Virus record (IMG/VR): IMGVR_UViG_3300025141_000036 | Coordinates: 48,402-112,401 of that record | Origin: a virus | Strand: one strand, 5' to 3' | DNA: 64,000 bases | Part shown: positions 19,123-39,356 of the stretch, piece by piece | Layout of the letters: each line of letters begins with the position of its first letter | Position numbering within the stretch: position 1 is the stretch's first letter | Notes under the pieces: model-generated | The model's input: only the letters and a program-made list of their open reading frames with translations | Told to the model about the DNA's origin: nothing | Databases searched by the model: none | Position numbers and translations under genes: made by a program

Positions 19123-20390
19123 GCGACCTCCTTAAAAATGATTCTATTCGCAGTTTTTCGAGTTTCCCAAGACCCTTCTTCTTTATGGATCTTAAGCATC
19201 AACTCCACCCATTGGGTGTTAAAATTTTCAAAATTATAATTCTTTACAACGTGCTCTCTGCCTTTGGCGCCAAGCTTCTTTCTTCCTTCGGGCCCCAGGT
19301 CATACATGTTGCTCAGGGCTGATAAGACATGGGATTTACTAACCCTATCTTCATAAATATAAGGCACATCTTGGGATCCGATAACCGATTTTGATGTCGG
19401 AAAAATCGGGAAGCCAAATGTATCATCCGGGGAGATTACTTGCTCTTGTAAGCCGCCAGTTACTGTCGCGATAATGGGAACTCCACAAGAAAGAGACTCC
19501 AGAGTAGATAATCCAAACCCCTCTGCGTCTGATATATTAATTGTGGCATCAGCCATCATATAATAAAATGGCATTGTCTGCTTAGGAACCTTTTGAGTCG
19601 AGAAAACTATCTGCCCTTCTGTCATTCCTAAATGTTCTGCTATGTGGACCAGATCTTGCCCGTGAGCGTCCTTAGGGGCAGTGTGCATTACAAGCATTGC
19701 TTTATCATGCAAATCTCGCTCATCTAGCCATTCTTTCCACCACCATACAAGAGTTCCAGATTGTTTACGACGGGCGTTTCTATTATTCCAGAAAACGACA
19801 AATTTCTCCCTATCCTTCTCATCGAAATTCTCTTCTCTGAGTTTTTTCTTTTCTTCGTCTGTAACTATTCGAAAAAGAGTGTTATCTACTGCATGTGGCA
19901 GATAAGTACAAGGGACGTCAGGAGCCACTTTACGAACTATGTCATCAGTTAATTTTGATATCGTCATGATGTGGTCATTCGACTCATAAAACTTCTTATT
20001 AAACATAGGATAAGGATAGTTATCCCAAACGTGATAATAAACCAAGGGACAAAGGGGACGGATCTCGTTTTCCATTTTCCACAACCATCCCCAAAATCTA
20101 GGGTCTGTCATAATCCAAACAATATCTGGTTTCTCATTGCGAAGTACCGATCTCAGCATATCTTCGGTTCCATAGCCATCGACAGGGATAACTCTCCAAT
20201 CTTCTCCAAACTCTTCCACCTTTACGGGAGTATAATCATGATGTTTGATTGCACCCCCTAAAGACAAAATGGAAAACTTTCCACTCCTCAAGAGAGCTTC
20301 ACAAACATATTTGGTTTGGGTTCCAACTCCTGATGGACTTAGGGGGTGATCCCCTAAGGTTAAAACTTTAATTTTCTTAGACATACGCAT
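19119..20390 (-). CDS. Glycosyltransferase family 4
   Basis: PSGVG, NRNARRK, EGFGLSTLES. Confidence 0.85.
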   Translation of the reverse strand: MRMSKKIKVLTLGDHPLSPSGVGTQTKYVCEALLRSGKFSILSLGGAIKHHDYTPVKVEEFGEDWRVIPVDGYGTEDMLRSVLRNEKPDIVWIMTDPRFWGWLWKMENEIRPLCPLVYYHVWDNYPYPMFNKKFYESNDHIMTISKLTDDIVRKVAPDVPCTYLPHAVDNTLFRIVTDEEKKKLREENFDEKDREKFVVFWNNRNARRKQSGTLVWWWKEWLDERDLHDKAMLVMHTAPKDAHGQDLVHIAEHLGMTEGQIVFSTQKVPKQTMPFYYMMADATINISDAEGFGLSTLESLSCGVPIIATVTGGLQEQVISPDDTFGFPIFPTSKSVIGSQDVPYIYEDRVSKSHVLSALSNMYDLGPEGRKKLGAKGREHVVKNYNFENFNTQWVELMLKIHKEEGSWETRKTANRIIFKEVA

Positions 20391-20410
20391 CCTTATGTTG
20401 TTTTACCTAT

Positions 20411-20439
20411 AATATAACACACACAAATTCACTTGTCAA
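20411..20439 (-). promoter_or_regulatory. Sigma70-type promoter for glycosylation cluster
   Basis: TTGACA-N17-TATATT. Confidence 0.8.
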
Positions 20440-20458
20440 GAAAAAAAGTTGACTTTTT

Positions 20459-21412
20459 TTATAAAGAGTCAAAATAAATCACGCCACTCACCACGGCTAC
20501 GGACAACCCTAAGCCCAACATAATTTTTAAAAAGTCCCCAACGAGCATTGGAAAAATTACACTTACCTCTTTGTCTTTATTAAAGGTGCGATAAACGGCC
20601 AATTCACGCCCAGCTAGCAACCCTACAAAGACCCAAGTGGTAGACATAGGGATCGCACTGTGGATCTTAAAATACCACAAAACTAGAGCGTAGAAAAGAT
20701 CTATTAGACAGGCAGATCTTATAAAACGAGTCCCGCTTTTGGATAGGACAATTTCTTGAATCTTTCCGCCTTTTGTGTAGAATAAATGAGCCAAGCCTGC
20801 TACAAGAATCCCAATCACCCCTAACATCATAGGGAGAGTGACTCCTTCTCGAGGAAGATAAGCAAAAACATTGGCAATATCATGAGACAGCCACATATAC
20901 CACAAAAAGCCCGTAGACAACCATTGTGCCACGGACCAAAATCTTTTGTGATCTTCTCGAACCTTTTGTTTCTCATCAAAGAAGCGATGCATCACCATCC
21001 AGATAGCGTAGGCCGAAATGGCTGCTAGACCATAGCCCATTGCTGATTTTATTATAATCTTCTCAAGCACGAGACCTGTCGAAAAGGCACTCAAGGTAAG
21101 AAGTGTAGTGGAAACAGGAACCCCAAGCCTGGTTAGACCAAGCAGAAGAACCGGTGCCGCTGCATGGTACCACTGGAATACTTCCGGGAGAGGAATCTTC
21201 TCCAATCTCCCAAAAGCAATATCTCCAGAGGCCCAGCCAGACAGTAGGGTTCCCGCCAGGATGCTGGACGCAAACGCCCACATCCAATACCACTTTACTT
21301 TTTTATTATTGGAACTTATAAATGTTCCAAGAGTTTGGGCACTATCGTTTCCAATAACTGAATAAGCTGCTAATAAAAAACCGATGGTGCCAAAAATCGC
21401 CGATAAAGACAC
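20459..21412 (-). CDS. PiT-like (inorganic phosphate transporter family) membrane protein
   Basis: Multiple TM helices; duplicated signatures GNDSAQT/HDIAN and PVSTT/PMSTT. Confidence 0.7.
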   Translation of the reverse strand: MSLSAIFGTIGFLLAAYSVIGNDSAQTLGTFISSNNKKVKWYWMWAFASSILAGTLLSGWASGDIAFGRLEKIPLPEVFQWYHAAAPVLLLGLTRLGVPVSTTLLTLSAFSTGLVLEKIIIKSAMGYGLAAISAYAIWMVMHRFFDEKQKVREDHKRFWSVAQWLSTGFLWYMWLSHDIANVFAYLPREGVTLPMMLGVIGILVAGLAHLFYTKGGKIQEIVLSKSGTRFIRSACLIDLFYALVLWYFKIHSAIPMSTTWVFVGLLAGRELAVYRTFNKDKEVSVIFPMLVGDFLKIMLGLGLSVAVVSGVIYFDSL

Positions 21413-21447
21413 TTTAACCTTCCTTTATCAATAATTAGTCATCAATT

Positions 21448-22221
21448 TTAAGGACAGTGTTCTGTCTTATTAAAGTCACATTTAGAACAGGACTTTCTAT
21501 TCTTAACAAAGTTAGCAGCCTTAATAGTTCGACATCCATCTGTCAATAGTTTAGTAGCGCTCTTAGTCTTTCGGGGACCAGAAGTCACACGAAAAATTTC
21601 AACTTTATTTTCCTTAGCAGTTCTCTTGAGAAGTCCAAAGTGTGTTTCCACAAGTTTGGGGTCAAGGTTGTGCTTCTCGCAGAAAAACTTCTTGTATAAG
21701 GTTAATTGATAAGTCACTAACTTTTCCGATCGTTTCTTGGCATCCCAGCCCCAGCTGCATGATTTCCAATCAAGAATGTGATATTTACCGTCTTCTGTTT
21801 TTATAACAAGATCAATGAAGCCCTTGAGATTCCACTCATAAGTAAGCTCATCTATAGGTTCATAAAGCATCTCTTCTGTTGAGAACACCTCGTATTCTCC
21901 AAAATGTTCTTTAAGTTGCGGAAAGACAGAAGGGGAAATTTCTTTCCCCTGCTGTCGCATTTGTGTGATCATTTTGTTGTCTGGTTTATCATCCAGTTTC
22001 TTTAGTTCACACAAAAATGCTAAATCAAAATGTTCGTCATAATCGATTGGCTCCAATTCTTCTTTTGCAATGTGTTCGCAAACGCTATGAATAGCAGTAC
22101 CAAAAGCAGTAAAGACATTTCCGGTGAAGCCTTTTAATTTATCAATGTATTGCAATTTATGTTTAAAGGGGCAATCCGCCCATGTTTTCAATTCTGAAAA
22201 TGAAATGTGTTGTTTTGTCAT
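21448..22221 (-). CDS. PD-(D/E)XK RecB/Cas4-like exonuclease
   Basis: SFS...CP, GTAIH, GFIDL, DWKS, YQLTLY, C-terminal CxxC...CP. Confidence 0.85.
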   Translation of the reverse strand: MTKQHISFSELKTWADCPFKHKLQYIDKLKGFTGNVFTAFGTAIHSVCEHIAKEELEPIDYDEHFDLAFLCELKKLDDKPDNKMITQMRQQGKEISPSVFPQLKEHFGEYEVFSTEEMLYEPIDELTYEWNLKGFIDLVIKTEDGKYHILDWKSCSWGWDAKKRSEKLVTYQLTLYKKFFCEKHNLDPKLVETHFGLLKRTAKENKVEIFRVTSGPRKTKSATKLLTDGCRTIKAANFVKNRKSCSKCDFNKTEHCP

Positions 22222-22886
22222 TAGTCCTCCAAATGAACAAGTTCGTCTATTATCCTGTATAATACAGGACTTAAATCTTTTAATAATCCTTTGTTTCCTA
22301 TGAAATATTCCTCAAATCCTCGAGCAAAATATTCATTTACTGATGTTACTGCATAAGATGAAATAAAAATGTTTGACACCAGCTGATTAAGAACGTCATA
22401 ACCCACTGATTTATAAAGATAGTTATCAATTTCCTTACTATACTCTATATTGGATAAGAAGTCTTTTGGAACATCTGTAATCTGTTTTAATCTCGTAGTT
22501 AAGTTTCGCCTCTTTGCTTTAAATTCTGCTTGGATGGCGCCTGAGCCATAGACCAGATGCTCATTATTTCTCTCTACCGCATGTGCTAATTCATGAACAA
22601 TGTCATCTATCATATCTAAATCTTCTTCTTGATTGTTTGTTACGTATATCGCGCCATCTTCGTAATAAGCATTTATCTCTCGCTCTTTCATTTTTGGAAA
22701 CTGACCTACATAAATAATATCAACATTACGCGCTAAATGAAAAGGCACGCGCGAACTTATATAATTAAAAACAAAGTCAGGATCTACATTATCTGGTAGC
22801 CTATCTTTAATATAAACATCCACACCGTTTAGGTTATACACGTCCTTAAGTCTCCTTCCTTTTTTAGCTGATTCGATAATCCACAT
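22221..22886 (-). CDS. Zinc-metallopeptidase-like protein (HExxH)
   Basis: HELAH; SYAVTSVNEYFARGF. Confidence 0.6.
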   Translation of the reverse strand: MWIIESAKKGRRLKDVYNLNGVDVYIKDRLPDNVDPDFVFNYISSRVPFHLARNVDIIYVGQFPKMKEREINAYYEDGAIYVTNNQEEDLDMIDDIVHELAHAVERNNEHLVYGSGAIQAEFKAKRRNLTTRLKQITDVPKDFLSNIEYSKEIDNYLYKSVGYDVLNQLVSNIFISSYAVTSVNEYFARGFEEYFIGNKGLLKDLSPVLYRIIDELVHLED

Positions 22887-22909
22887 AATTCTTCACCGTA
22901 ATTATAACT

Positions 22910-22938
22910 AATATAACATAAAGAAATTAACTTGTCAA
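22910..22938 (-). promoter_or_regulatory. Sigma70-type promoter
   Basis: TTGACA-N17-TATATT. Confidence 0.75.
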
Positions 22939-22939
22939 A

Positions 22940-23359
22940 TTATTTGTTGGTTTTTACAATCCAATCGGCTATCGGGAGGACGACATTCCAGTTTGAATTT
23001 GGGTTTTTCATATGATGATCCCAGTGCCATCGTTGATATGATTTTGCCCACTTGGGATTACGGTGTCCATAATTGTGCAAAACGAAGAATGCTATAACAT
23101 AGACAACTGTAGCAAAATAGAACATACAACTAATGTAAAAAATAGGGAAATGGATAATAGCAAGGAATAATAAACCAACCGTTTCGATGAAAGACATTCG
23201 AATATCAATAAAATTGTTCTTTTTAGCAACGACATGATGGTCCCTCAAATGATATGCAAAGAGACTATCTTTTTTCTTGCCTCTTACATGAAATAGATGT
23301 TTGTGAATCCACCATTCCAAAAAACTTGCATAAATCGTTCCTAAAATAAATCCTATCAT
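22940..23359 (-). CDS. Fatty acid hydroxylase/sterol desaturase family protein
   Basis: EWWIHKHLFH, HLRDHH, HNYGH, HWDHH His boxes. Confidence 0.8.
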   Translation of the reverse strand: MIGFILGTIYASFLEWWIHKHLFHVRGKKKDSLFAYHLRDHHVVAKKNNFIDIRMSFIETVGLLFLAIIHFPIFYISCMFYFATVVYVIAFFVLHNYGHRNPKWAKSYQRWHWDHHMKNPNSNWNVVLPIADWIVKTNK

Positions 23360-24699
23360 AATAATTTAGCGGCGGCAGTTGCCAGCTTTGATCGCTCTCC
23401 TTTCCTAAATGTAATATGGCCGGCAAGTTCACTTCCTTTAAACTTCTCAACAGCATACGTCAAACCATTGCTTGTTTCATTCGTGTAGACATTATCTATT
23501 TGTTCGATGTCGCCGGTTAAAACAATTTTTGTGTTCTCGCCAATCCGAGTGATAATCGTCTTGACTTCATGCGCCGTTAAATTTTGGGCCTCATCTATAA
23601 TTACAAACGCATTAGAAATTGACCGACCTCTTATGTAAGTTAATGCTTCAACTTCAATTTTTCCTTTCTCTACGTAGGCTTCGAGCATAGTGCGATCATC
23701 TCCCATAAGGTGACGAATATTGTCTTGGATTGGCTTCAACCAAGGAAGCATTTTTTCTTCCATCGTTCCCGGAAGGAAACCAATGTCCTTTCCTAAAGGC
23801 TGTACAGGGCGTGAAATAATGATTCGTCGGTATTGGTCACCCTTTCCTCCCAGACCTTGTTCCAAAGCTGCTGCAATGGCCATTAAGGTCTTCCCAGAGC
23901 CTGCTTTACCTATGAGAGAAACCAGAGGAATCTCATCATCGAACAAAAGGTCAAATGCGAAGGATTGCTCTTTGTTCCGTGGAAGCACTCCCCACATCAA
24001 TTCGTTTTTAAAATCTCGGATATGTTGTAAAGGTTTAGCATAATCTGAGAATCTCGATAGCGCTGTTTTCTTTTCGTTGCTCGAAGACACAAGCATGACA
24101 AATTCGTTTGGGTGTAATATTATCTTTTGTTCGAGCACTACATCTTCATCCAAATAAACATCATCTCCGAGATAAAATTGGTTGACCAACTCTTCGTCTA
24201 CAAGAAGTTTTGTAAACCCCTCGTATATCTTGTCTGTGTTGTCAACAACTTGAGAATTGCTGTAATCTTCAGTTAATAGTGCTAGTGAATCAGCTATCAC
24301 TCTCATATTGATATCACGAGAAACCACAATTGTTTTTCTTTTCGGTGTTTCCTTTTTTATTGTCAGTGCAGTGGCCAAAATCAAATGATCCGACATCTTA
24401 TGAGTAAGGTCCTTAGGAAGCTCGTTAAGGGCTATTTCAGACGCTTTAACAACACGGAGCACCCCTAACCCCTTGGCGATGCGAACACCTCGAGAAAGGC
24501 TGCCAGCGGCTCTTAGAGTGTCAAAAGTTCTTATTGATTGTCTTGCGTGATGACCAACTGAGTCTTGTCGTTTTTTATGAAGATCTATTTCCTCCAACAC
24601 CTTAAGGGGAATAATAATATCGTTATTTTGGAATTTATAAATGCAATTAGAATCAGAAAGAAAGACGCTTGTGTCTATAATAAAATTCTTTTTAGCCAT
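23356..24699 (-). CDS. phoH: PIN-PhoH (PhoH2) protein
   Basis: IDTSVFL PIN domain; GKAGSGKT, IGFLPG, YIRGRS, DEAQN, GDIEQID. Confidence 0.92.
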   Translation of the reverse strand: MAKKNFIIDTSVFLSDSNCIYKFQNNDIIIPLKVLEEIDLHKKRQDSVGHHARQSIRTFDTLRAAGSLSRGVRIAKGLGVLRVVKASEIALNELPKDLTHKMSDHLILATALTIKKETPKRKTIVVSRDINMRVIADSLALLTEDYSNSQVVDNTDKIYEGFTKLLVDEELVNQFYLGDDVYLDEDVVLEQKIILHPNEFVMLVSSSNEKKTALSRFSDYAKPLQHIRDFKNELMWGVLPRNKEQSFAFDLLFDDEIPLVSLIGKAGSGKTLMAIAAALEQGLGGKGDQYRRIIISRPVQPLGKDIGFLPGTMEEKMLPWLKPIQDNIRHLMGDDRTMLEAYVEKGKIEVEALTYIRGRSISNAFVIIDEAQNLTAHEVKTIITRIGENTKIVLTGDIEQIDNVYTNETSNGLTYAVEKFKGSELAGHITFRKGERSKLATAAAKLL

Positions 24700-27554
24700 T
24701 ACATCTCCTTGAGTAACTGTTCTATTATTGGCTTTAACTTCCGAATAATCTGTTCCCTTCGACCCATCCTTTTATTTATTCTACTTCTTGACCGGGAGGC
24801 TGCTCTGCTTGTAACCTCCTCCTCATCTTCTGATGATTGAGTTAAGTGATTGACCAAAAGATTGATTACTGGGTGCTCTTCTCTAACTAGGGCCAGAAAT
24901 GCAACCCTATGATTATCCTTCATATTTTTCATTATTTGTTGCATTTTTTTCTTGCCGGTGGGGCCTCTAAGGTGGAGGCGCTTGGGGAAGTTATCAACTA
25001 TTTGTTTTTGTTTCTTTTTTCTTCTTGCATAAGGAGATACACTTTCCAATACCGGAGATGTCTCCTTGTTATAGAGTGTTATAAAGTTTTTGATCGCATC
25101 TCGATATTCCTCTTCCAGATTTTCCCAGTGCTCTGACTTAAAAAGAGGGGATACATATTTTTCCACCTCATCTTTGACAACAACTTCCAACTCTTCCTCA
25201 GTCTCTGGGAGGTTTTCCTCTGGAGTTTCTTCTCGAACTTTTTTCATAATCCTGTCAATCATACTTTCTTCTGATTCTTCATCGCTCGGGCCTTCTTCCG
25301 CAAACCTTCTGGCTATTTCTGCCACATCGGGAAAGTCTGGTGAGTCTGCGTCACTATCTACTGATGGCTGCGGACCCTCTTCGTCACTCAAAGACTCATC
25401 GCTGGGATCGAGAAGTGTTTTATCTGCTTTCCTTGGAACTCTCATGGGAACCCCAAAACTGTCTTCGATCGCCTTGGATAAACTTCGCATTCTTAATGCT
25501 AAGCGCTTTATATTCGAAGACGAAATTCCATCATCCTTGACAGTCATATAGAGGTCCCTCAAGACTTGCCCAAATAAACCTATTTGTTTGTCTAGTTCTT
25601 TTATGGCTGTTGCTAGAGTGACAACTTCACCTTGAGAATTAATATAAGATTGAGGAAAAAACTTTATAATTTCCTTAGCCAGATCTTTCATTTCTTCGGC
25701 GGCGGCGATTGCCTTTCTTTGTACATCTCGTGAAATCTGTTTAACTTCGGGCTCTGCTACTTCGGGCTCTGCTTCTTCGGCTTCGTTGGTCTCTTCCAAC
25801 GTCAATGAGGGTTTAAGAGAATTCACATAGATACTGCCCATTTTATTATAAATTTCCCTTATAAATTTAACCTTTTCCTCTCGAGACCCTTGTTGTTCCT
25901 GAAGTGGTTCTAGTTCTGATCCCTGTTCTGCTATTATTTTTGCCAAAAAGGCTATCAATAAACCACATTGCTCTTGAACTTGACCGAGCACGCCATAATC
26001 TCCACCTTGGCCTGTTCCCGTTAACATTCTTTCGAGACTTGTGCCATCATATCCGGCGCTTGCGCTTTGACGAAAACCAAATCGCTGATATGCATCGGCT
26101 ATTCCTCTTGCGTCTTTTAGTAAATCAGCAAAATCTCCCACTTCTCTTTTTAGTGTGATTTTATCCTTTTTTGACCATGGAATATAATTTGTTTCAGTTT
26201 CTTCTTCTTTTTCTTCATTAAAGGCTCGGCGCTGGGTTGAGCCGTCTTCGTCGGCTGGACCTCGGATAATCTCGTTAAGATTATCAATCAAGCCATAAAG
26301 CATAGATGCTTGTGTCTGCAAAAATAACTGTCCCATAAAGGATGCTGTATTAGGGGTTTGGCCAAAAAATTCGTCCATACTTTGAATTTTTGACTCATCT
26401 ATCTCTTGTTGTTGAACAATTTTATTGTCGGTGAAATCTTTCGTAACCGTCTCTTCATCCACTTCAGAGGTTTCTATTGGTGAAGGGCTTTCTGGGTCTA
26501 TCTCTGCTTCTGGTTCTTTTCTATTATATTCATTTTTAAACCACTCTAGCGCTTTACAGTATTGTGGGTGTTCCTCGGTATCGCAGTCTTCAGTCATCTT
26601 CTTGACAAAGTTTTCTCTCATTTCGGCATTTCCATCTAGAAACAATTCTGGATGGAAACCATAAGGGTTACTTTCCTCCGATGTAGCTGCAGCGTGCATC
26701 AGATAAATCAGGGGGTTGGCGAATTCGGGGTCTCTCATCTCATGATCGAAGTAAGGGTTGTTTTGTGGGAGTTCCAATGGCAATTGACTTACCATCTCTA
26801 GTTTAGCGTCGACTGAGCCTTTTTCGTCTGACGAAAAATATTTATTCATGAAAGCCTTCATACCTATCTTCTTTATTTCGGTGACCCCTGCTTCTATGAG
26901 TTTTTGCTGCCACTGATCAAAGGCACTATAGTCTTCGTCCGTGTAAGGGGCTTCATCTTTGCCAGTGGAGTCGGTATCGGGTTCTTTCGGGGAAGCTGAA
27001 GGAGGATGTGTTTTATCAAATGTTTGTTTTAGGATTTCTTTTTGTTCATCCGACAGGTCAAAGTCCGGATTTTTTTTAACATTGCCTAAGATGCGCTGGT
27101 ATGACTTAGGATCGTTGTTGATAGATTTTATGAAACTTGCAATTTGCTCATCTTCGGCGGGAGGCAATCCTGTTTTCACTGGGCTCTGGGAATCCCCTAG
27201 GGAATTAAGTTGGGCCTCGACTGCATTATTAAGAACCTTGAGTCCTTCTTCTTCTTCACCTAAAGCTTTTATAGCACTTGTTAGCCACCTTTTGTACTGT
27301 TTGGATTCGGGGCTTATTAATTTTATTATTTCTTCGGGCTTTCTGTTTGCAGCAAGCGCTCTTGTGATATAATTTCTCACTTTTGCGGCTATGTTGCCTT
27401 TCGGGGTTGCCGCTCCTTCACCCAATTCGTCTTCCACCATTATTTCTTCGACAATCAATCGATTGACGATGGATGATTCGGCTAATTTTTGTTTGAGAAT
27501 CTCTTGGATCAATGGGTGTTTAAAAACGGCGGTGGCTAGTTTTTTATTATTCAT
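24699..27554 (-). CDS. Large acidic hypothetical protein (putative virion/internal head protein)
   Basis: 951 aa, E/D-rich, several LxE motifs. Confidence 0.6.
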   Translation of the reverse strand: MNNKKLATAVFKHPLIQEILKQKLAESSIVNRLIVEEIMVEDELGEGAATPKGNIAAKVRNYITRALAANRKPEEIIKLISPESKQYKRWLTSAIKALGEEEEGLKVLNNAVEAQLNSLGDSQSPVKTGLPPAEDEQIASFIKSINNDPKSYQRILGNVKKNPDFDLSDEQKEILKQTFDKTHPPSASPKEPDTDSTGKDEAPYTDEDYSAFDQWQQKLIEAGVTEIKKIGMKAFMNKYFSSDEKGSVDAKLEMVSQLPLELPQNNPYFDHEMRDPEFANPLIYLMHAAATSEESNPYGFHPELFLDGNAEMRENFVKKMTEDCDTEEHPQYCKALEWFKNEYNRKEPEAEIDPESPSPIETSEVDEETVTKDFTDNKIVQQQEIDESKIQSMDEFFGQTPNTASFMGQLFLQTQASMLYGLIDNLNEIIRGPADEDGSTQRRAFNEEKEEETETNYIPWSKKDKITLKREVGDFADLLKDARGIADAYQRFGFRQSASAGYDGTSLERMLTGTGQGGDYGVLGQVQEQCGLLIAFLAKIIAEQGSELEPLQEQQGSREEKVKFIREIYNKMGSIYVNSLKPSLTLEETNEAEEAEPEVAEPEVKQISRDVQRKAIAAAEEMKDLAKEIIKFFPQSYINSQGEVVTLATAIKELDKQIGLFGQVLRDLYMTVKDDGISSSNIKRLALRMRSLSKAIEDSFGVPMRVPRKADKTLLDPSDESLSDEEGPQPSVDSDADSPDFPDVAEIARRFAEEGPSDEESEESMIDRIMKKVREETPEENLPETEEELEVVVKDEVEKYVSPLFKSEHWENLEEEYRDAIKNFITLYNKETSPVLESVSPYARRKKKQKQIVDNFPKRLHLRGPTGKKKMQQIMKNMKDNHRVAFLALVREEHPVINLLVNHLTQSSEDEEEVTSRAASRSRSRINKRMGRREQIIRKLKPIIEQLLKEM

Positions 27555-27733
27555 TATTTGTCCTCCCTTACCAAAGCTATATATTGTCTTACAACTGCTT
27601 GTTGTTCAGAGGGCAATGACGATAAGATCTTCTCTACATTATCTTCGAGAGATTGAGAATCCAATTCCTCTTCATTTACACGAGACAGTTCTTCTTTTAT
27701 TATTTGCTTAAGCCTTTGTCTAGATACTTTCAT
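27554..27733 (-). CDS. Small protein with MKVSRQRLKQIIKEE leader (not in ORF track)
   Basis: Manual translation, 59 aa, coupled to both neighbours. Confidence 0.7.
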   Translation of the reverse strand: MKVSRQRLKQIIKEELSRVNEEELDSQSLEDNVEKILSSLPSEQQAVVRQYIALVREDK

Positions 27734-27963
27734 TATTTAATCTCCGTCACTGAATTAGATATTTCTGGGTTGAAATCTGTTCTTAATTTAATGAGTGGGT
27801 TAAATGATGCTCTTTTTCTATCTAACAAAAGAGCTCCTTGTGGTTTTACCAACTGGCCTGTTACATCAACCCCTTCAAAGTCTATCTCTGTTCTACTCTT
27901 GTATTTGACATCACGGTCAACGTCCTGTGCAAATACTAGAAATACTAAAAACAATAAAAACAT
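27733..27963 (-). CDS. CglF/GltF-like (myxobacterial gliding-motility family) secreted protein
   Basis: Signal peptide ending ..VFA/QD; YKSRTEIDFEGVDVTGQLVKPQG..L.RKRASFNPLIKLRTDFNPEI matches the CglF pattern as I recall it. Confidence 0.75.
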   Translation of the reverse strand: MFLLFLVFLVFAQDVDRDVKYKSRTEIDFEGVDVTGQLVKPQGALLLDRKRASFNPLIKLRTDFNPEISNSVTEIK

Positions 27964-28006
27964 AATATTCCACCTCGCAGTAAATAGATTCAAAAAGATT
28001 AATGAG

Positions 28007-28252
28007 TTAATGTTCTACGGGTTTAATTCCCATCGAATTCATTTTTACTAAATATTCGAAAAAAGATTTAAGACTTTCATCTTTTGATAATTGGAACCCT
28101 ACAGAACCTACTGCTGCCACTTCATCTATAGGGATCCCTGCGTCCCCGGCGGCTTGGCACCAATACAAAATTCCTTTCATTATTTCCATTATTGCTGGGT
28201 CATTTTCTGCTTTTTGCAAGAAGGACTCGAGATTTTTATCATTTAGCTGCAT
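28007..28252 (-). CDS. Hypothetical protein
   Basis: 81-aa ORF. Confidence 0.6.
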   Translation of the reverse strand: MQLNDKNLESFLQKAENDPAIMEIMKGILYWCQAAGDAGIPIDEVAAVGSVGFQLSKDESLKSFFEYLVKMNSMGIKPVEH

Positions 28253-28670
28253 TTAATTGCTCCATTGCTTTATTAACCAACCAAGAGGATGATTGAGGTT
28301 TATCTTTTCCGCCGATTCCCCATAACATCTGAACTCCCAGTTCGTCGCACACTTCCATTTCGGGTGTATTGTCTTTTTTTCTGTCTCCTCCGTTTGCAAA
28401 GGCTGATGGCCTTAGTCTTCTGATGGCTTCGCACACAGTGCCATCGGAATCATCCACATTTGACACCACTTGAACTCCTTTAATATTTCCAAGGATAGAG
28501 ACCCTTTCTTCATAAGGCATAAAAACATAACCCTTTTTTCTTAGAAGCCACTCATCTGAATTGACTACTACTATTACAGAGCCCCAGTGGGAGGCTTCTT
28601 GAATCATTTTTACATGACCAACATGGACGGGATCGAACCCTCCGCTTACCATAATCCTTTTCATTTTCAC
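28239..28670 (-). CDS. Cytidylyltransferase-like (TagD/RfaE-II family)
   Basis: SGGFDPVHVGH, NSD, ER, FANGGDR, SSS. Confidence 0.88.
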   Translation of the reverse strand: MKMKRIMVSGGFDPVHVGHVKMIQEASHWGSVIVVVNSDEWLLRKKGYVFMPYEERVSILGNIKGVQVVSNVDDSDGTVCEAIRRLRPSAFANGGDRKKDNTPEMEVCDELGVQMLWGIGGKDKPQSSSWLVNKAMEQLNAAK

Positions 28671-29164
28671 CTCACAATAAAATTATGCCATCCGGTGGGA
28701 ACATCAATGTGATGATAAAAATCAATGATGCTAACATTTGGCACATATGGTATTTTAATTAGTCTCATAGAAGCCTCTTGGGGTGTTTTATTACCCTTTT
28801 TCTGATTACAAGATAAACAGCATGTCACAAGGTTTAACCATCCTCTTCCGCCACCTCTTGATTTAGGGATAATGTGATCTAGTGACAAAAATTTATATTT
28901 AAACTGCCCTAAGCAATATTGACAAGTATATTTATCTCTCCAATAAATGTTTTTTCGGGTGGGGCTCATTGAGACTCTTTTTTTTTGAACATAACTCTTT
29001 AATACAATTACCGATGGAAACAAAAAACGGGCACAAGGCCCGTGAGTGTAATCCTCAACAGACTGTGCCCGCCCAGTATAAACCATAGAGAATCCTTTCT
29101 CTGCTGGTATAATTTCTATAGGTCGCCAAGAGGCGTCCAGTTTTAGCGTCATCAAGTTTCCCAC
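28667..29164 (-). CDS. HNH endonuclease (McrA-like)
   Basis: RDKYTCQYC...DHIIPKSRGG...NLVTCCLSCNQKK. Confidence 0.9.
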   Translation of the reverse strand: MGNLMTLKLDASWRPIEIIPAEKGFSMVYTGRAQSVEDYTHGPCARFLFPSVIVLKSYVQKKRVSMSPTRKNIYWRDKYTCQYCLGQFKYKFLSLDHIIPKSRGGGRGWLNLVTCCLSCNQKKGNKTPQEASMRLIKIPYVPNVSIIDFYHHIDVPTGWHNFIVR

Positions 29165-29171
29165 ATAATAA

Positions 29172-29495
29172 TTAGGCCTTTGACATAAGTTTCGACGCCG
29201 CTCCGTCGGGAGTTAATTTGGAACTTACCACCTCTGGCATGTTAAAATTGTCAACAAACGATTTTAGTTCCCCAAATGCTTTCTTATAATCTGGTTCCAT
29301 AACAACTTCAGTTTTTCCTCCGTGTCCATGGATAGCATGAACTTCTCCAATTGAATCATAAACAGTTACACTAGGATGTTCTGATAACCACGTGACTGCG
29401 ACCTTACCATTATCAAAGACGAATCCTTGGGCAACTCTACCTGTGCCGCTGATTCCGCTTTCGTCTTCAGTTCTATTTAAATAAAATATTTTCAT
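29172..29495 (-). CDS. Conserved phage hypothetical protein
   Basis: LNRTEDESGISGTGRVAQG...HGHGGKT. Confidence 0.65.
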   Translation of the reverse strand: MKIFYLNRTEDESGISGTGRVAQGFVFDNGKVAVTWLSEHPSVTVYDSIGEVHAIHGHGGKTEVVMEPDYKKAFGELKSFVDNFNMPEVVSSKLTPDGAASKLMSKA

Positions 29496-29508
29496 ACTAT
29501 TGGTTCTC

Positions 29509-29949
29509 CTAGATCCATTCATAATCATCATCGCTACTGGAGTCTTCTTCAAGTTCTTCTGTTTCTTCATTGTTTATAGCTTCCCTTTTTTTAAGTTCGT
29601 TAACTGATTCTATTTTTGTTTCTTCTAATCCTCGAAAATCTCTCATTATCTCGGCGTGTTGTGTAGAAATGAATTGTAAAACAGATGTAAAAATTTCAAA
29701 CACATCCTGTTGATAAGGAACCATAAATAGCGTTGAGCTAACTATTTGAATTTGCATCCCGAGTTGCATTTCTAATGTTTCCACATCAAGAGCACCATCG
29801 TCCTTTAAATAGGCCGTAAATTCGGTTTCTTCCTCAAAAAACTCCAACATTTTTAACAAATAAAATTGCTCTTCTTCAGCACTATCTAGGTTTAAATTAA
29901 TTCCATTCATTAAAATTTCTTTAATACCCGAGGAAACAAAACTACTCAT
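29509..29949 (-). CDS. Hypothetical acidic protein
   Basis: 146-aa ORF. Confidence 0.55.
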   Translation of the reverse strand: MSSFVSSGIKEILMNGINLNLDSAEEEQFYLLKMLEFFEEETEFTAYLKDDGALDVETLEMQLGMQIQIVSSTLFMVPYQQDVFEIFTSVLQFISTQHAEIMRDFRGLEETKIESVNELKKREAINNEETEELEEDSSSDDDYEWI

Positions 29950-30743
29950 GGCTTCCTCCGCAGAATCTCTATCATGCTATCTATTATTTCTGCAGTGTGC
30001 AAGGGCCCTGAAGAGACATAGGATTTTCCTATACATGCTTGATAGATCTCATAATCATTACCATTAGGTTCGCACCTATCACCCACAAACCAAACATCCC
30101 AATTTTTAAAATGTTGGAGTCCATATGTTTTATCCCAACCAGTAGGATATATATCAAACGATGTGTCTCCACCCAACTTTACAGTTACCAAATGGTCTAT
30201 TTCCTTTATTTTTAGAATTGCACGCAATTCTAGTAATACTCTTTCTCTAAGACCTTCAGTCTTATCTAATAGCATAAATTCTTCTCTGTCTTCATGAGTG
30301 GCATTTCGTCCTATCGGACACCAATTTATTATAGAGCCTCGACAGTTAATAAAGTGACCTGTAAGGGGGACTGCTGAATTTGCCATGTCTACTTGAGAGT
30401 AAATAAGTTCTTGCATAAGGATTTTATAATTCTTTTTTCCCAAGTGACTTTCCATCGAAACTTCATACTTCAATTTAAAATCCTCTTGAGGAAATGACGG
30501 AGGAGTATAATATTTCGTGCCATTGCAAGGTAGCAAATGTGTTCTATAGCGACCAGAAGACTTTCTTAAAAAATCACCCATTTGCTCTCTAAGATAATCT
30601 TCATCGGATCCCGTTATAATTCCCATGTGTGCTCCACAATTTGTTAGGCGATAAAGGGCTTCAACAAGTTCTTTACAATTAAAAACTTTTCGAGATTCTG
30701 TTAAGGTTCCATCCATATCAAATAAAATTATAGTGTTATCCAT
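29946..30743 (-). CDS. Eukaryote-type (HAD-IIB) phosphomannomutase
   Basis: LFDMDGTLT, GSD, CPIGRNAT, GGDTSFDIYPTGWDKTY, GDR..PNGNDYEI. Confidence 0.88.
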   Translation of the reverse strand: MDNTIILFDMDGTLTESRKVFNCKELVEALYRLTNCGAHMGIITGSDEDYLREQMGDFLRKSSGRYRTHLLPCNGTKYYTPPSFPQEDFKLKYEVSMESHLGKKNYKILMQELIYSQVDMANSAVPLTGHFINCRGSIINWCPIGRNATHEDREEFMLLDKTEGLRERVLLELRAILKIKEIDHLVTVKLGGDTSFDIYPTGWDKTYGLQHFKNWDVWFVGDRCEPNGNDYEIYQACIGKSYVSSGPLHTAEIIDSMIEILRRKP

Positions 30744-30945
30744 CTTCTTCTCCTTTTAGGAGAGTCCCTGTTCTTACTACGAACTTAGATTTGTCAGGGC
30801 CGCACCTTCGAACTTTAACAAGGCCCTCTAAGGACTTCCTGTGTTTGTCTGCTTCTTGGAAGGTTTTGTAATAGGCAACATTTTTCCATTTTACTTTTTG
30901 GGGATTTGGCAATCTTTTCTCAGTAATCTCAGTGTTTTCACTCAT
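30736..30945 (-). CDS. Hypothetical protein
   Basis: 69-aa ORF with SD (AGGAG). Confidence 0.6.
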   Translation of the reverse strand: MSENTEITEKRLPNPQKVKWKNVAYYKTFQEADKHRKSLEGLVKVRRCGPDKSKFVVRTGTLLKGEEDG

Positions 30946-30986
30946 ACTTTCTCCTATTTGTAATGTAAGTTAGTTGTTATTCATAT

Positions 30987-31015
30987 AATATAACCCTTTT
31001 AGGGTTTAGTGTCAA
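30987..31015 (-). promoter_or_regulatory. Sigma70-type promoter
   Basis: TTGACA-N17-TATATT. Confidence 0.75.
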
Positions 31016-31175
31016 GTCTTTTTTCGACTTCTTCTTTGACTTCTTTGATAAGGTCGAGAGCCTCGTAAATCTTTTTTTGAAAAATTTCACCAGTAGCTAG
31101 ATAAGCTGATCTTCTTATTTGATGTTCTGTTTTATCCAGCGCTAGCCAAATTTTTGTATCAAGGTCTTTATTCAT
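30999..31175 (-). CDS. Small hypothetical protein (not in ORF track)
   Basis: MNKDLDTKIWLALDK..., 58 aa, SD GGAGG in upstream LEVI. Confidence 0.55.
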   Translation of the reverse strand: MNKDLDTKIWLALDKTEHQIRRSAYLATGEIFQKKIYEALDLIKEVKEEVEKRLDTKP

Positions 31176-31395
31176 TTGTTATCACCTCCAAATAGATTTC
31201 TGGTAAAACTTCTTCTCTACCGTTTGACCAAACTACTGTTATATCACCTCTATTTCTTCCGTCATAAGAAAAATTAGTTTTATCATGTACAATTTTTATA
31301 ACCCCTATCATTCCCATATTTAAACCGCTTCTAATAAACTCAGATAAGATAGCAACGCCCACTTCTCTTTGTTTAACTAAATCACCTACTTCCAT
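31168..31395 (-). CDS. GDLV SH3-like small protein
   Basis: MEVGDLVK...IGVI...VVW...LEVI. Confidence 0.75.
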   Translation of the reverse strand: MEVGDLVKQREVGVAILSEFIRSGLNMGMIGVIKIVHDKTNFSYDGRNRGDITVVWSNGREEVLPEIYLEVITNE

Positions 31396-31600
31396 CTATC
31401 ACCTCCAATTCGTAATCTGAGAACTTCCAAACACCTTCAATCGTTTGAACATAATAAAGACACCCTAACAAATCACTATAATCTATTTCCAAAATTATAC
31501 CTATCAATCCAAGATCTGGTCTGTTATAAAAAGGGGAATAAACCGATTCTTTAATTCTTACAAGATCTCCTACTTCTAGTATAGCCAGTTCTGATGTCAT
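31382..31600 (-). CDS. GDLV SH3-like small protein
   Basis: LEVGDLVRIK...IGII...LEVIDGSR; start uncertain (overlaps a TTGACA-N17-TATACT element ending at 31606). Confidence 0.65.
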   Translation of the reverse strand: MTSELAILEVGDLVRIKESVYSPFYNRPDLGLIGIILEIDYSDLLGCLYYVQTIEGVWKFSDYELEVIDGSR

Positions 31601-31650
31601 TGTCAAATTTTTCTTTTTGTATTTTTTTCTTTATATACATGTAAATAATC

Positions 31651-32004
31651 TTAATCATTTATAAATAACTTCTCTGTTTTATATCTTTTTAATAATTTAT
31701 CAAATTCTCTAATATCAATACCTAACATTCTTGCACCATCTCTTTTAGATTCACAAGCTGATAGTACATACCTTAGTACTGCGTCTTTGCAAATAGAAGG
31801 CATTGCCTTCCATAATGGAAAATTATATAATTTATTCTTTGTCAGTTGAACCGCTAGCTCCAACTTAAGAGCTATAACTTCTTCTAAAGTAAGAGAAGAA
31901 AGGACATTTAAGAACTCATCATTTATCTTCCGATTTCTTCTCATGAAAGAGATAAAAGAATAATTTTTAAATTTATTTATTTTTTTATTTGACACAGACA
32001 CCAA
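31651..32004 (-). CDS. Fis-like HTH DNA-binding protein
   Basis: C-terminal VLRYVL...SKRDGARMLGID...LLKRY. Confidence 0.65.
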   Translation of the reverse strand: MVSVSNKKINKFKNYSFISFMRRNRKINDEFLNVLSSLTLEEVIALKLELAVQLTKNKLYNFPLWKAMPSICKDAVLRYVLSACESKRDGARMLGIDIREFDKLLKRYKTEKLFIND

Positions 32005-32017
32005 AATAGGCTATATT
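31989..32017 (+). promoter_or_regulatory. Plus-strand (antisense) sigma70-type promoter
   Basis: TTGACA-N17-TATATT on + strand. Confidence 0.55.
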
Positions 32018-32031
32018 ATCTATAGTTGTTA

Positions 32032-32928
32032 TTAATCTTGTTTCATAGAGTCATACTGATCAGTTGATGGCTCAGTGACTTCTTTTTGAAGTTCGTCTTC
32101 AAACTTATCAAAATATAATTTTAAATTAGTAATCAGATAGTCTACAAAGATTTTTTTATCTTCTATGTCTGCCAGCATATCATATGCATCAAGGATGTAT
32201 TGTGAGATTTTTTTGAAACATGTGAAAGCCATGTTTCTACCAGTCTCATCCATATCTGATAGTTCATTGCTAAATTCTTCAATTTCATTAGGCTCATCGT
32301 CATCTTCAACAGGAATTTTTTTATCTTCATCTTCAATGTCAACTTCAATTTCAGCTTCTTCAAGATTTTTCAAGGTTGCGTCCAACTCTTCGTCACCTTC
32401 CTCACCCGTAACATCTATATTTGTTTCGGTTTCGGACTCAGATCCATAAACCTCTTCATCAGTATTTGGCCCACCGAAATCAGGTGTAGGTTCTGCCATC
32501 AAAGCCTGCGTGCCTTGTAAATAACTGTCATTTACTAATGAAGGAGCAAGAGCTTTCTTCACAGCAGAGATCATATGAGCCCTAAATGACTCTCTTTGAA
32601 CTTTAGAGGTAGTCATACGCTTATAATCAGTTCGGAGGGTAGTAATCATCTTTTTTAAGACATCCTCAAGGACGTTAATCCCAGTGGAACGATGAGGGTG
32701 CATATCTGAGATATCACCTTCTTTGAGGAGACCTCTAATAACTTTCCGCAACCTTTGTTCCTGCAGGAATTGTTGCTTTTCTTGTTCATACAGCATTGAC
32801 TTTATTTTTTTTCTTATATATTTTCGAACAATAGCTTCGCCAATTATTTCTTCACGCATAGGGGTTTCTTCCTTTTCATTTAATAGCTCAAACAACTGTT
32901 TAAGATTGTTTACCTCAATAATGGCCAT
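32032..32928 (-). CDS. Acidic hypothetical protein (putative virion protein)
   Basis: LRKVIRGLLKE motif, D/E-rich linker. Confidence 0.65.
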   Translation of the reverse strand: MAIIEVNNLKQLFELLNEKEETPMREEIIGEAIVRKYIRKKIKSMLYEQEKQQFLQEQRLRKVIRGLLKEGDISDMHPHRSTGINVLEDVLKKMITTLRTDYKRMTTSKVQRESFRAHMISAVKKALAPSLVNDSYLQGTQALMAEPTPDFGGPNTDEEVYGSESETETNIDVTGEEGDEELDATLKNLEEAEIEVDIEDEDKKIPVEDDDEPNEIEEFSNELSDMDETGRNMAFTCFKKISQYILDAYDMLADIEDKKIFVDYLITNLKLYFDKFEDELQKEVTEPSTDQYDSMKQD

Positions 32929-33911
32929 TACTTAAGCCTTAAGCGAAGTTTTTTATTACTCTTTAAAACTTTACGGATGCTCTCTTTCAAACTACCGGTT
33001 TCCAAAAGAGCATCTTCAGGAGAAGCTCCATCATCTGCTTTCTCAGAGGTAGCAGCATCTTCGCTAGCTTCGTCTTCTGTAACAAGCCCTGATGGATCTC
33101 TGTCTTCGTGGCCAACCAACTTATCTTTTCGATTGCGATGCTCATCTTTTCGATCATCTTCATAGTCATCGTGATCATACTCAGCCTCGTCGCGGTCGTG
33201 GTCACGATCACCCTTGAGAGCCCTTAAGTGTCTTTCTATTTCTTTGATATGATCATCATCAGCATGTTCATTTTTCCAATTATTCCAAGCTTCGTCTTCG
33301 CCGCTGTCTTCTTGAAGCGCTTCGCCTTTATCCAGAGCAGAAGTTTCTTCTTTTTCTTCTTTCTCTGTTCCAGTAAAAGCAGCGGGGGATTTTCCCCAAT
33401 CATCTGTTTTATCTTCTTTAAGAATCCCAAATCTCTTCATAAGAAGTTGATTGAGTTCGTTATTTTTCCATTCATTTAATGACATTTCTTGTTTCTCCTT
33501 AAGTTTAAGATTGTCTTCGTATTCTCTAAAGTATCCGTTGCCTAATTTCATGGCTTCGTCTTCTAAATCTTTAAGATCTTTGTTTTTTAAATAGTATCCA
33601 GGCCCAGAGTATCCTCCAACATCTAGTCTACCTTCTTCGTTTTGCCAATGGTGGATTAATTCATGGGCAATAGATCGAAGCATGTCCTTTGGGTGTCTCC
33701 CATCGGTATAAACATGGATTTGGATACTATTAGGGTCATAATATGCCGTCTTTCCCAGGATATTATCTTCGTTTGAAGGTTCTGAGTCAAAAACCATTAT
33801 CGGCGGCTTATTAAAGCCGATTTTATTGTGCATATGAGAGTATAAACCTTGCACATGATCTTCTAAATCACTTAAATCTATGTTAGCTGGGTTTTTTATC
33901 ATGCAAGGCAT
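32928..33911 (-). CDS. HExxH metallopeptidase-like domain + acidic tail
   Basis: RSIAHELIHHWQ...EDEA. Confidence 0.6.
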   Translation of the reverse strand: MPCMIKNPANIDLSDLEDHVQGLYSHMHNKIGFNKPPIMVFDSEPSNEDNILGKTAYYDPNSIQIHVYTDGRHPKDMLRSIAHELIHHWQNEEGRLDVGGYSGPGYYLKNKDLKDLEDEAMKLGNGYFREYEDNLKLKEKQEMSLNEWKNNELNQLLMKRFGILKEDKTDDWGKSPAAFTGTEKEEKEETSALDKGEALQEDSGEDEAWNNWKNEHADDDHIKEIERHLRALKGDRDHDRDEAEYDHDDYEDDRKDEHRNRKDKLVGHEDRDPSGLVTEDEASEDAATSEKADDGASPEDALLETGSLKESIRKVLKSNKKLRLRLK

Positions 33912-33918
33912 AGTCTAA

Positions 33919-34179
33919 TTAGTCCTCTAAATCCGATTTTTTCACTAAAATAAGGCTTATTTTAACAGGGTTTGAGTGCCCAAAAGGCAATATCTCGGCT
34001 ATTTTGATGTCTCTTTTGTCCAATTTACCGGTGTATATGGACAGTAAGACACCGTATTTGTAGTTTCGAGTCACATTTTCGTCTGTATGTTCCCATCCTG
34101 GCCACCTAACTATCTCTCCAACCTCGAATTTTAGCGTTTGAGAGTCCCCCAAGACCTTATTCTTGAGTTTTTCGAGCAT
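33919..34179 (-). CDS. SH3-like small protein
   Basis: FEVGEIVRW...YGVLL; likely start ATG 34179. Confidence 0.55.
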   Translation of the reverse strand: MLEKLKNKVLGDSQTLKFEVGEIVRWPGWEHTDENVTRNYKYGVLLSIYTGKLDKRDIKIAEILPFGHSNPVKISLILVKKSDLED

Positions 34180-34192
34180 TTCTTTGCTCAAT

Positions 34193-34516
34193 TTAAGGAT
34201 TCGCGCCTGAATCGCGTCCATAATAGATGAATTCCAAGCAGTTTCCATAAGGATCCAGCAAATAGCAGCCGATAGAGCCGTCTCTATGGTGTATAATGTG
34301 ACCATTTTCTGGAAAATCCTCCATTTTATCTACAAAAACACCAATATGGGAGTGTTCATAGTGTTTTTCATCGATAAGAGATAGAAAAGTATTATCTAAT
34401 TGTAATCTTTTGTAAGAGTTCGTCTCATAAACCACTTTTGAGCCGAGTTTTTTACAATACCAGGCGCTTGCTGCATTAATATCGGATACTTTGATGGCAA
34501 TATGGTCTATTTTCAC
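34193..34516 (-). CDS. VOC/glyoxalase-family protein
   Basis: IDHIAIKVSD...WY...HIG...DPYGNCLE. Confidence 0.85.
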   Translation of the reverse strand: MKIDHIAIKVSDINAASAWYCKKLGSKVVYETNSYKRLQLDNTFLSLIDEKHYEHSHIGVFVDKMEDFPENGHIIHHRDGSIGCYLLDPYGNCLEFIYYGRDSGANP

Positions 34517-34878
34517 GAACCACTCAGTTTTTCGAGCATTTGAATGACCATTTCATCGCTCATATTGACATCTGCGGAGTCAATAGGGTCATTTTCAGGC
34601 CCAACATAGTCATATGCCCCCTCTTCCATTCCGTATTCAACGTAATGTTTAACAGTTTTAAGATAATCCGCGGCCTTTGTCAGTTTTGCTTGCACCCACG
34701 ACTCTAGTTGAGTAGTATCGGCAAGCATTTCACTTAATTCTCGCGCATATGTTTCCATATCTTGGAGTTGGCGTTTAGCCATGGCCCCCTCTTCATCAAT
34801 TTCAGGCTGCATTGGCCCTTGGGCCATAGCACATTCTTCTAAAATGATTTGTGTAAGTCGTTTTTTGCTAATTTTCAT
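34513..34878 (-). CDS. Putative virion protein with MKISKKRLTQIILEE leader
   Basis: EGAMAKRQL...LESWVQAKLTKAADYL. Confidence 0.7.
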   Translation of the reverse strand: MKISKKRLTQIILEECAMAQGPMQPEIDEEGAMAKRQLQDMETYARELSEMLADTTQLESWVQAKLTKAADYLKTVKHYVEYGMEEGAYDYVGPENDPIDSADVNMSDEMVIQMLEKLSGS

Positions 34879-35023
34879 GTTTTTTATTCCTTCAAGAACG
34901 CAATGTAGAACAAAAGTAGCATAATCATAAACAATTCTTCAAAAACTGCTACTCCTAACATGGTAAATAGAAAAATAATGGTTATTTTGATCAAATGAAA
35001 AATTTTTTCTTCTTGGTGTTGCA

Positions 35024-35380
35024 TTAATTAAACCCCATAAATTCAATTTGGTCTTTAAAGACCTTTAAAATTACTCCGATTTGCCATGTATGATGAGAAT
35101 AAACATAGCACCTCTCTTTATCATCATCAGCCCAGGGCATTAGATAGTATTCTTTATCACGAGGGACAGCAATGTGGATCTTATCATTGACAGAATAACA
35201 AAAAATAATTCCATTTCCCTTAAATCTTACAGGTGGTAATAAGGTTCCGTCATCTTGGTGTAGGAGTTTTGCAAGCTTTAGGGCTAATTTTTCGGGATTT
35301 TTATATAAATATTCCCGTAATTTTGCTTGACTTTTAATTCCGCTATTCTCCGCCGCCACCATCGCCGCCTCCATCTCCAA
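35024..35380 (-). CDS. Hypothetical protein
   Basis: 118-aa ORF, start uncertain. Confidence 0.5.
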   Translation of the reverse strand: MEMEAAMVAAENSGIKSQAKLREYLYKNPEKLALKLAKLLHQDDGTLLPPVRFKGNGIIFCYSVNDKIHIAVPRDKEYYLMPWADDDKERCYVYSHHTWQIGVILKVFKDQIEFMGFN

Positions 35381-36608: not shown

Positions 36609-36628
36609 AATTTTATTCCTATTATAAC

Positions 36629-36657
36629 AATATAACATATTTTAGGCATTTTGTCAA
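36629..36657 (-). promoter_or_regulatory. Sigma70-type promoter
   Basis: TTGACA-N17-TATATT. Confidence 0.75.
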
Positions 36658-37172: not shown

Positions 37173-37209
37173 GAAGACGTACCTCACAATAAATAGTAGA
37201 GGAACTAGG

Positions 37210-39302: not shown

Positions 39303-39356
39303 TCATAAGTCCCCCGTCTATAAGTAACTAGGGGGCCATAGACAGATTTGGAATTT

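Follow-up and report, generated by a model that had tools for sequence, protein, structure and literature searches.

The window analysed here, a stretch of 64,000 bases, runs from base 48402 to base 112401 of an IMG/VR virus record 112,401 bases long, whose completeness CheckV puts at 62%. A short gene for a GltF/CglF-like protein lies on its minus strand, in the following arrangement:

23356..24699, minus strand: PhoH-like ATPase, a phage-typical gene (phrog_2765, E 5e-111; 93% identical in the sister phage L002)
24699..27554, minus strand: acidic protein of 951 aa, function unknown, following in the run of genes on this strand
27554..27733, minus strand: downstream neighbour, 59 aa, its start overlapping the stop of the gltF-like gene (TAATG)
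27733..27963, minus strand: gltF/cglF-like coding sequence, 76 aa plus stop (open reading frame with a match to NF033764)
27970..27976, minus strand: Shine-Dalgarno sequence GAGGTGG, read from the sequence, 6 nt 5' of the ATG at 27963
28007..28252, minus strand: upstream neighbour, 81 aa, function unknown (open reading frame on the same strand, no PHROG match)

The GltF-like peptide quoted in a preliminary description of this DNA occurs letter for letter in the minus-strand frame at 27733-27963, the only match to this gene in the whole 112-kb phage record. The longest open reading frame begins at TTG 27993 and would give 86 aa. We rejected this start, as the TTG is absent in the close sister phage L002 (record G410, 187,355 bases, rated 100% complete), in which an in-frame TAA falls between the TTG-equivalent position and the conserved ATG, and GAGGT and ATG are both kept. 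Given the Shine-Dalgarno sequence and the lack of conservation of the TTG, ATG 27963 can be taken as the true start, which yields the 76 aa likewise picked by the gene callers of a public protein collection.

The 81-aa upstream neighbour has a 53% identical copy at the same place in L002, and the 59-aa downstream neighbour has neither a family match nor a match in L002. No match in Pfam or PHROG was obtained for the very acidic 951-aa ORF. The PhoH-like ATPase, as a phage-typical gene, anchors the region as phage DNA. The wider neighbourhood, all on one strand, comprises PhoH, an HNH endonuclease, a cytidylyltransferase and glycosyltransferases, so that the gltF-like gene sits among small accessory genes and not among structural ones. 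Two glycosyltransferases and a heptose-adenylyltransferase-like cytidylyltransferase (window positions 17884-20390 and 28239-28670) suggest that the phage may also alter the surface sugars of its host. The GC content of the window is ~0.38-0.40 up to ~42000 and then 0.44-0.48, with short ORFs, to the window end.

Assignment to the GltF/CglF family

The CglF/GltF homology proposed in the preliminary description is borne out by HMM search: the NCBIfam model NF033764 (CglF) matches with an E-value of 1.6e-12 and 47.3 bits across profile positions 26-88 of 88, that is, across the whole mature protein. No match was found in Pfam or PHROGs. The mature protein is 83% identical to the GltF of an uncultured member of the Myxococcota (locus L042), one of the bacterial genes found in glt-type synteny. 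It aligns gap-free in the mature part, at 36-38% identity, with equivalog-level CglF proteins (L140, 100.5 bits; L137), all of whose motif columns it retains.

The score of 47.3 bits falls short of the 90-bit equivalog cut-off of NF033764. However, this cut-off is reached in only 3 of the 201 Myxococcota genomes sampled, and even the syntenic bacterial GltF copies score just 52-61 bits, from which we conclude that it delimits a narrow subgroup and not the family; as bacterial copies in synteny also stay below 90 bits, the score of the phage protein is no argument against membership. Within the narrow Myxococcus-type equivalog, which is further characterised by a requirement for gliding, localisation at focal adhesions and rescue of mutants by cell contact, the phage protein cannot be placed by score (47.3 vs 90 bits) or by flanking genes, its neighbours being small ORFs, the 951-aa ORF and PhoH instead of gltE and gltG. 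Taken together, the NF033764 match, the 83% identity to syntenic GltF and the gap-free CglF alignment establish, at the level of sequence comparison, membership of the GltF/CglF/NfsF family in the broad sense.

Relatives of the protein are numerous, and the similarity is far beyond chance level. At E<=1e-3, 512 clusters were retrieved from 1.84 billion representatives, and a protein collection clustered at 90% identity yielded 1,261 clusters at the same threshold; the best 120 of these are nearly all 76 aa long, and several of the best 120 derive from Tara Oceans data. In the ESM Atlas the nearest clusters hold 56-98 members of 75-81 aa, of which all with a known taxon (100%) are viral.

Segments and predicted shape of the protein

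Four segments can be distinguished along the 76 residues:

27928..27963, minus strand: signal-peptide-like N-terminus, aa 1-12 (MFLLFLVFLVFA, then QD), aligned to homologues
27841..27903, minus strand: best-conserved block, aa 21-41 (YKSRTEIDFEGVDVTGQLVKP), with columns Y, T, D, F, E, G and P invariant or near-invariant
27781..27840, minus strand: middle block, aa 42-61 (QGALLLDRKRASFNPLIKLR), which with the preceding LVKP is part of an identical 21-aa run
27736..27780, minus strand: C-terminal segment, aa 62-76 (TDFNPEISNSVTEIK), a predicted helix with a conserved F..E[MI]..S pattern

Small size (about 75-130 aa) and an N-terminal type I signal peptide are expected of members of the family. 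The 76-aa phage protein begins with MFLLFLVFLVFA, a hydrophobic stretch that holds no Lys or Arg and closes with an A-x-A-type end (VFA before QD), and this end aligns with the A-x-A followed by Q-D/E at which the signal peptides of bacterial and phage homologues finish. Most phage homologues have canonical signal peptides of the MKY or MRF kind, for example MKYIIIFLLSGVAYA followed by DD and MRFLLLVVAFFSGFAHA followed by DP. Hydrophobicity and alignment speak for the signal peptide named in the preliminary description, whereas the basic n-region of such a peptide is missing from this copy; we consider it likely, judging by the aligned homologues, that the protein is exported.

The 21-aa run LVKPQGALLLDRKRASFNPLI is identical in the window and in four bacterial loci (L042, L043, L044 and L047). 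Compared with CglF of M. xanthus (GltF; MXAN_4868, NF033764; PMC3169522, PMC4488436, PMC11761067), the phage protein is likewise a small protein of the secreted type and has in common with it the motif Y-K-x-x-T-x-x-D-F-E, G, P-x-G, R, L-I-x-[LI]-R-x-x-F-x-x-E-[MI]-x-x-S. It differs in its shorter signal peptide, and its gene has no glt neighbours.

AlphaFold, run with an alignment of 46 sequences, predicts a signal helix, an extended irregular chain and a C-terminal helix (mean pLDDT 79, pTM 0.27). In 86-aa numbering the helices span residues 3-23 (signal) and 75-85, with residues 24-74 lacking regular structure; in 76-aa numbering the C-terminal helix corresponds to residues 65-75. The model has no globular fold; it has the largely unstructured chain and C-terminal helix that characterise the family, in agreement with PMC11761067, and the same extended chain with a terminal helix is predicted for M. 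xanthus CglF.

GltF has been described as a largely disordered periplasmic adaptor that bridges GltC, GltD and GltG (PMC11761067). In the published AlphaFold model of the M. xanthus proteins, GltG is contacted through its TonB-C-like domain by a GltF strand (residues 94-111), and the TPR protein GltC receives the terminal helix (133-147) in a crevice (PMC11761067). If positions are numbered backwards from the C-terminus in this gap-free part of the alignment, both contact segments of that model can be placed on the two best-conserved blocks of the phage protein: aa 21-41 would be the counterpart of the strand predicted to pair with the TonB-C-like domain, and aa 62-76 the positional counterpart of the helix predicted to occupy the GltC crevice.

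Bacterial relatives and their gene clusters

The preliminary description had assigned the family to Myxococcota, and matches were indeed present in 150 of the 201 genomes sampled from this phylum. A scan of one genome per prokaryote species returned 104 relatives, 80 of which were kept; these come from Myxococcota, from 'Deltaproteobacteria' MAGs or from MAGs with placeholder names, and two genomes labelled otherwise (G001, 'Enterobacterales', and G005, 'Oligoflexia') fall within the same Myxococcota phylum sample. The family has also been reported in Bdellovibrionota (PMC3169522).

At four loci (L042, L043, L044 and L055) the gene at the gltF position lies directly between a GltE-like gene for a TPR lipoprotein (NF033758, E 1e-37 to 1e-42) and a GltG-like gene (NF033760, E 1e-107 to 1e-112) that bears an AgmX/PglI tail, and the GltE-GltF pair is preceded by a TPR gene of 1,066-1,088 aa. 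This order matches gltD-E-F-G of M. xanthus, where GltF (MXAN_4868) has 89 aa and a signal peptide (PMC3169522). At L042 a 622-aa ORF occupies the gltC position and is followed by GltD-like and GltE-like genes, which by position fits an nfs-like order. One genome of lower GC content (G008, ~0.47-0.49) contains two clusters, each with its own GltF-type gene. The first, L140, is of the canonical glt type, with equivalog-level GltC (480 bits) and CglF (100.5 bits) followed by a long TPR gene. The second, L139, holds an OMP beta-barrel and GltC-, GltD-, GltE-, GltF- and GltG-like genes in a single run, the layout of the nfsA-H operon of M. xanthus, a Glt paralogue that moves spore-coat polymer (PMC3858216). 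The GltF of L139 is more phage-like than that of L140.

The GltF proteins of single-cluster Glt/Nfs-type machines (L042-L044, L055 and L139) and NfsF belong to the same subfamily as the phage copies, and the closest bacterial sequences are 74-83% identical to the phage protein in the mature part. While the bacterial genes stand beside those of their partners in the order OMP-gltC-D-E-F-G, the phage gene stands alone. Gene order and similarity suggest that the closest bacterial relatives serve single-cluster Glt/Nfs-type machines of uncultured Myxococcota with an Nfs-like arrangement. Manipulation of gliding or predation, as initially proposed for the phage gene, does not follow from the nearest bacterial clusters, which are of this single-cluster, Nfs-like order.

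Phage identity, spread and retention of the gene

Genes in the part of the record before the window, namely those for a large terminase (phrog_2, E 3e-52), an SbcC/Rad50-like nuclease, a DNA primase and a gp6-like baseplate wedge, mark the record as a genuine tailed phage. The claim that the CglF/GltF-like protein is phage-encoded holds, its gene being located in a terminase-bearing IMG/VR virus record. Among cultured phages, Flavobacterium phage vB_FspM_immuto and Microcystis phage Mel-JY01 come closest, at terminase identities of 46% and 45%, respectively; with cultured terminases no closer than this, the lineage is one of uncultured large myovirus-like phages.

Homologues of gltF were found in 40 IMG/VR contigs, including three complete genomes of 187-203 kb (G410, G205 and G206). 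In the sister phage L002 the local gene order is the same as in the window (p265, p146, p132, HNH, cytidylyltransferase, p81, gltF, then PhoH), and in the other 39 contigs the gltF-like gene has a different conserved neighbourhood. There (L003-L041) its neighbours are an ~800-900-aa protein, an 80-aa protein, a NUDIX hydrolase, a trypsin-like protease and a DUF5661 protein; the ~800-900-aa protein was compared with the 951-aa neighbour in the window and the two are unrelated. The TerL proteins of the complete genomes G205 (203 kb) and G206 (196 kb) are 66-67% identical to that of the window phage, and that of G207 is 51% identical. By terminase similarity, at least some of the other 39 contigs belong to the same broad phage lineage. 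A tblastn search against 50,697 GenBank phage records, the Flavobacterium and Microcystis relatives included, did not reveal a gltF-like gene; its absence from these relatives is what would be expected of a host-specific accessory gene.

The gene has a GC content of 0.34, compared with 0.39 in its surroundings and ~0.60 in the bacterial genes. Among the phage copies, synonymous sites are saturated and the proteins are 50-89% identical, with dN/dS of ~0.05-0.12 where dS was computable. The phage gltF-like gene is under strong purifying selection. Location in a bona fide phage genome, phage-like composition, conservation in related phages and purifying selection are the marks by which auxiliary genes are recognised, and all are present here. 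Five phage records, of which three are complete, were checked for gltC and for a gltG/J tail, and neither was detected.

A maximum-likelihood tree, built rapidly from the 60 mature residues of phage and bacterial copies, placed the window phage and L002 among the bacterial loci L042, L043, L045, L046 and L055. Of the other phage copies, 31 form a clade (SH-aLRT 96) that adjoins L103 (UBA796), L104, L049 and L048, and six form another (support 100) that adjoins L074, L090, L101 and L105. Phage copies thus occupy at least three positions in the tree, but a single phage clade is not rejected by the AU test (p 0.36), for which reason we make no claim of repeated capture.

The probable host

A host bearing Glt/Nfs-type machinery, most likely an aquatic member of the Myxococcota, is what we consider probable. 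In the preliminary description the gene was read as a pointer to this phylum, and the range of the family upholds that reading; the GC content of the phage (0.38 vs 0.47-0.73) and the lack of a CRISPR-like match do not. Phage loci with the gene have a GC of 0.33-0.45, Myxococcota loci 0.47-0.73 and the bacterial loci with close relatives 0.52-0.73. This mismatch is softened by the existence of Myxococcota with a GC of 0.47-0.53 (G008, G046 and G380), by the fact that L103 (0.55) and L104 (0.52), whose copies lie closest to the large phage clade, have the lowest GC of the bacterial loci found, and by phiKZ-type phages, which differ from their host by nearly 30 GC points. When window positions 20000-39999 were compared with 401 Myxococcota genomes for spacers or shared DNA, no spacer-like match emerged; the comparison gave just weak similarity at PhoH and gltF (65-78% identity) and short chance-level matches (E>=1e-6). 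The cultured relatives of the phage infect other phyla (Flavobacterium, Microcystis).

A proposed role in the host's surface-transport machine

The presumed setting is that of two trans-envelope machines of Myxococcota, Agl-Glt for gliding and Agl-Nfs for the spore coat. Once a cell is infected, the phage protein would be secreted into its periplasm and attach there to a host GltG-type protein, with the conserved strand segment on the TonB-C-like domain, and through its C-terminal helix to the TPR protein GltC. It could then replace or supplement host GltF within a Glt/Nfs-type machine, which would be kept going, or redirected, while host gene expression fails. That such a machine accepts GltF in trans is indicated by cglF mutants, whose motility is restored on contact with wild-type cells that provide the protein (PMC3325183). 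As no gltC or gltG/J tail is present in the five phage records, the protein must act via host partners, and the structural comparison points to a GltG-type protein and GltC as the candidates.

We lean towards a working replacement or takeover subunit of the host machine rather than a pure blocker, because both predicted contact segments are nearly unchanged and the phage carries no other Glt part; this reading is somewhat better than an open guess, and the present data do not tell support of the machine from its sabotage, so that the direction of the effect is best treated as conjectural. More broadly, and with greater reserve, we propose that a family-level clade of ~200-kb marine phages of planktonic or particle-attached Myxococcota may have captured GltF, repeatedly or anciently, to run or re-aim the host's PMF-driven surface-transport machine. 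To our knowledge, phages of this kind have not been described for planktonic or particle-attached Myxococcota.

The homology and export evidence could serve equally for a dominant-negative decoy that excludes superinfection: the phage copy would bind host GltG and/or GltC and stall the machine, leaving the infected cell immobilised or its outer-membrane Glt platform altered against adsorption or injection of further phages. Phages are known to make periplasmic or lipoprotein blockers of envelope machines, T5 Llp being an example, and the position of the gene among small accessory, not structural, genes would suit one. A blocker would nevertheless be expected to keep one interface and to lose or change the other, whereas the two putative contact segments and the residues that link them are kept to the same degree as in bacterial orthologues. 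GltF is, moreover, periplasmic and not surface-exposed (PMC11761067; PMC4488436). We therefore regard a decoy as unlikely, though as the strongest competitor of the favoured reading, and its variant in which the protein occludes an outer-membrane Glt receptor, as first suggested for this gene, fits poorly with a protein described as a periplasmic adaptor (PMC11761067).

Rather improbable, in our opinion, is a different target in a non-myxobacterial host, with the protein acting as a general ligand of TonB/TolA-type C-terminal domains and TPR proteins, such as those of Tol-Pal, TonB or a gltCDEG-type 'core complex' in low-GC marine Bacteroidota or Gammaproteobacteria. The GC mismatch with Myxococcota speaks for it, as do the Flavobacterium and Microcystis hosts of the closest cultured relatives and the kinship of Glt core genes, present in some Gammaproteobacteria, with Tol/TonB parts (PMC3169522). 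Yet an identity of 83% to Myxococcota GltF across the mature protein goes far beyond a shared short motif; all 80 kept genome matches lie at high-GC loci, and the contexts that were checked are of the Glt type; even the two differently labelled genomes, G001 and G005, group in the one phylum sample. The gene is missing from all 50,697 GenBank phages, those of Flavobacterium and Microcystis included, and a large phage-host GC gap is, as a matter of general knowledge, not without a phiKZ-like precedent. That the gene is non-functional, either a neutral recent passenger or bacterial DNA mis-assembled into a viral contig, is very hard to believe: although it is short, has no PHROG family and appears at three or more tree positions among bacterial copies, its GC of 0.34 is phage-like and unlike that of bacteria, it belongs to a same-strand run with overlapping stop and start codons, it recurs in 40 viral contigs and three complete genomes, and its protein is conserved while its synonymous sites are saturated.

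Relation to known systems and significance

The protein family as such is known, and what is new is its phage setting and the implications of that setting. In a limited literature search we found no phage-borne GltF/CglF. A 2026 preprint on myxobacterial viruses reports surface-sugar auxiliary genes, and a term search of its text returned no phage-borne Glt gene.

A well-known parallel is cyanophage psbA, a host-derived auxiliary gene of marine phages that replaces a labile host subunit. The gltF-like gene resembles it in encoding one subunit of a host machine, in its phage base composition, in being under purifying selection and in its spread across a phage clade; it differs in that its product is a structural adaptor of an envelope motor and not a metabolic or photosynthetic protein.

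If the favoured role as a working subunit is correct, this would be the first virus to contribute a structural component to a bacterial motor for gliding or surface conveyance; a phage-borne subunit of an envelope-spanning motility or surface-transport machine would represent a class of auxiliary gene that we did not find described. The gene would also be a host pointer, to Glt/Nfs-bearing Myxococcota, for a widespread uncultured clade of ~200-kb ocean phages, and gltF could serve as a sequence marker that gives hosts to a large group of unassigned ocean phages. The role of GltF in the Agl-Glt machine so far comes from genetics and structure prediction only, and the phage copies would add a natural set of highly diverged yet functionally constrained GltF proteins whose invariant positions mark contacts.

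GltF-like segments within other bacterial proteins

A GltF-like segment of ~55 residues also occurs inside long bacterial proteins, near residues 470-1000. Its hosts include VIT+VWA proteins of 636-780 aa (P0149, P0156, P0166 and P0173) and other proteins of 900-1345 aa (P0151, P0154, P0178, P0187, P0207 and P0231); one of the VIT/VWA proteins carries a Myxococcales annotation and is similar to the 'marine proteobacterial sortase target' family. Embedded in this way, the segment might act as a portable docking peptide for machines of the Glt type. In some Myxococcota genomes, two GltF-like genes stand in tandem, a few hundred bases apart (G055:C11:94459-95325; also G191:C46, G077:C24 and G010:C14).
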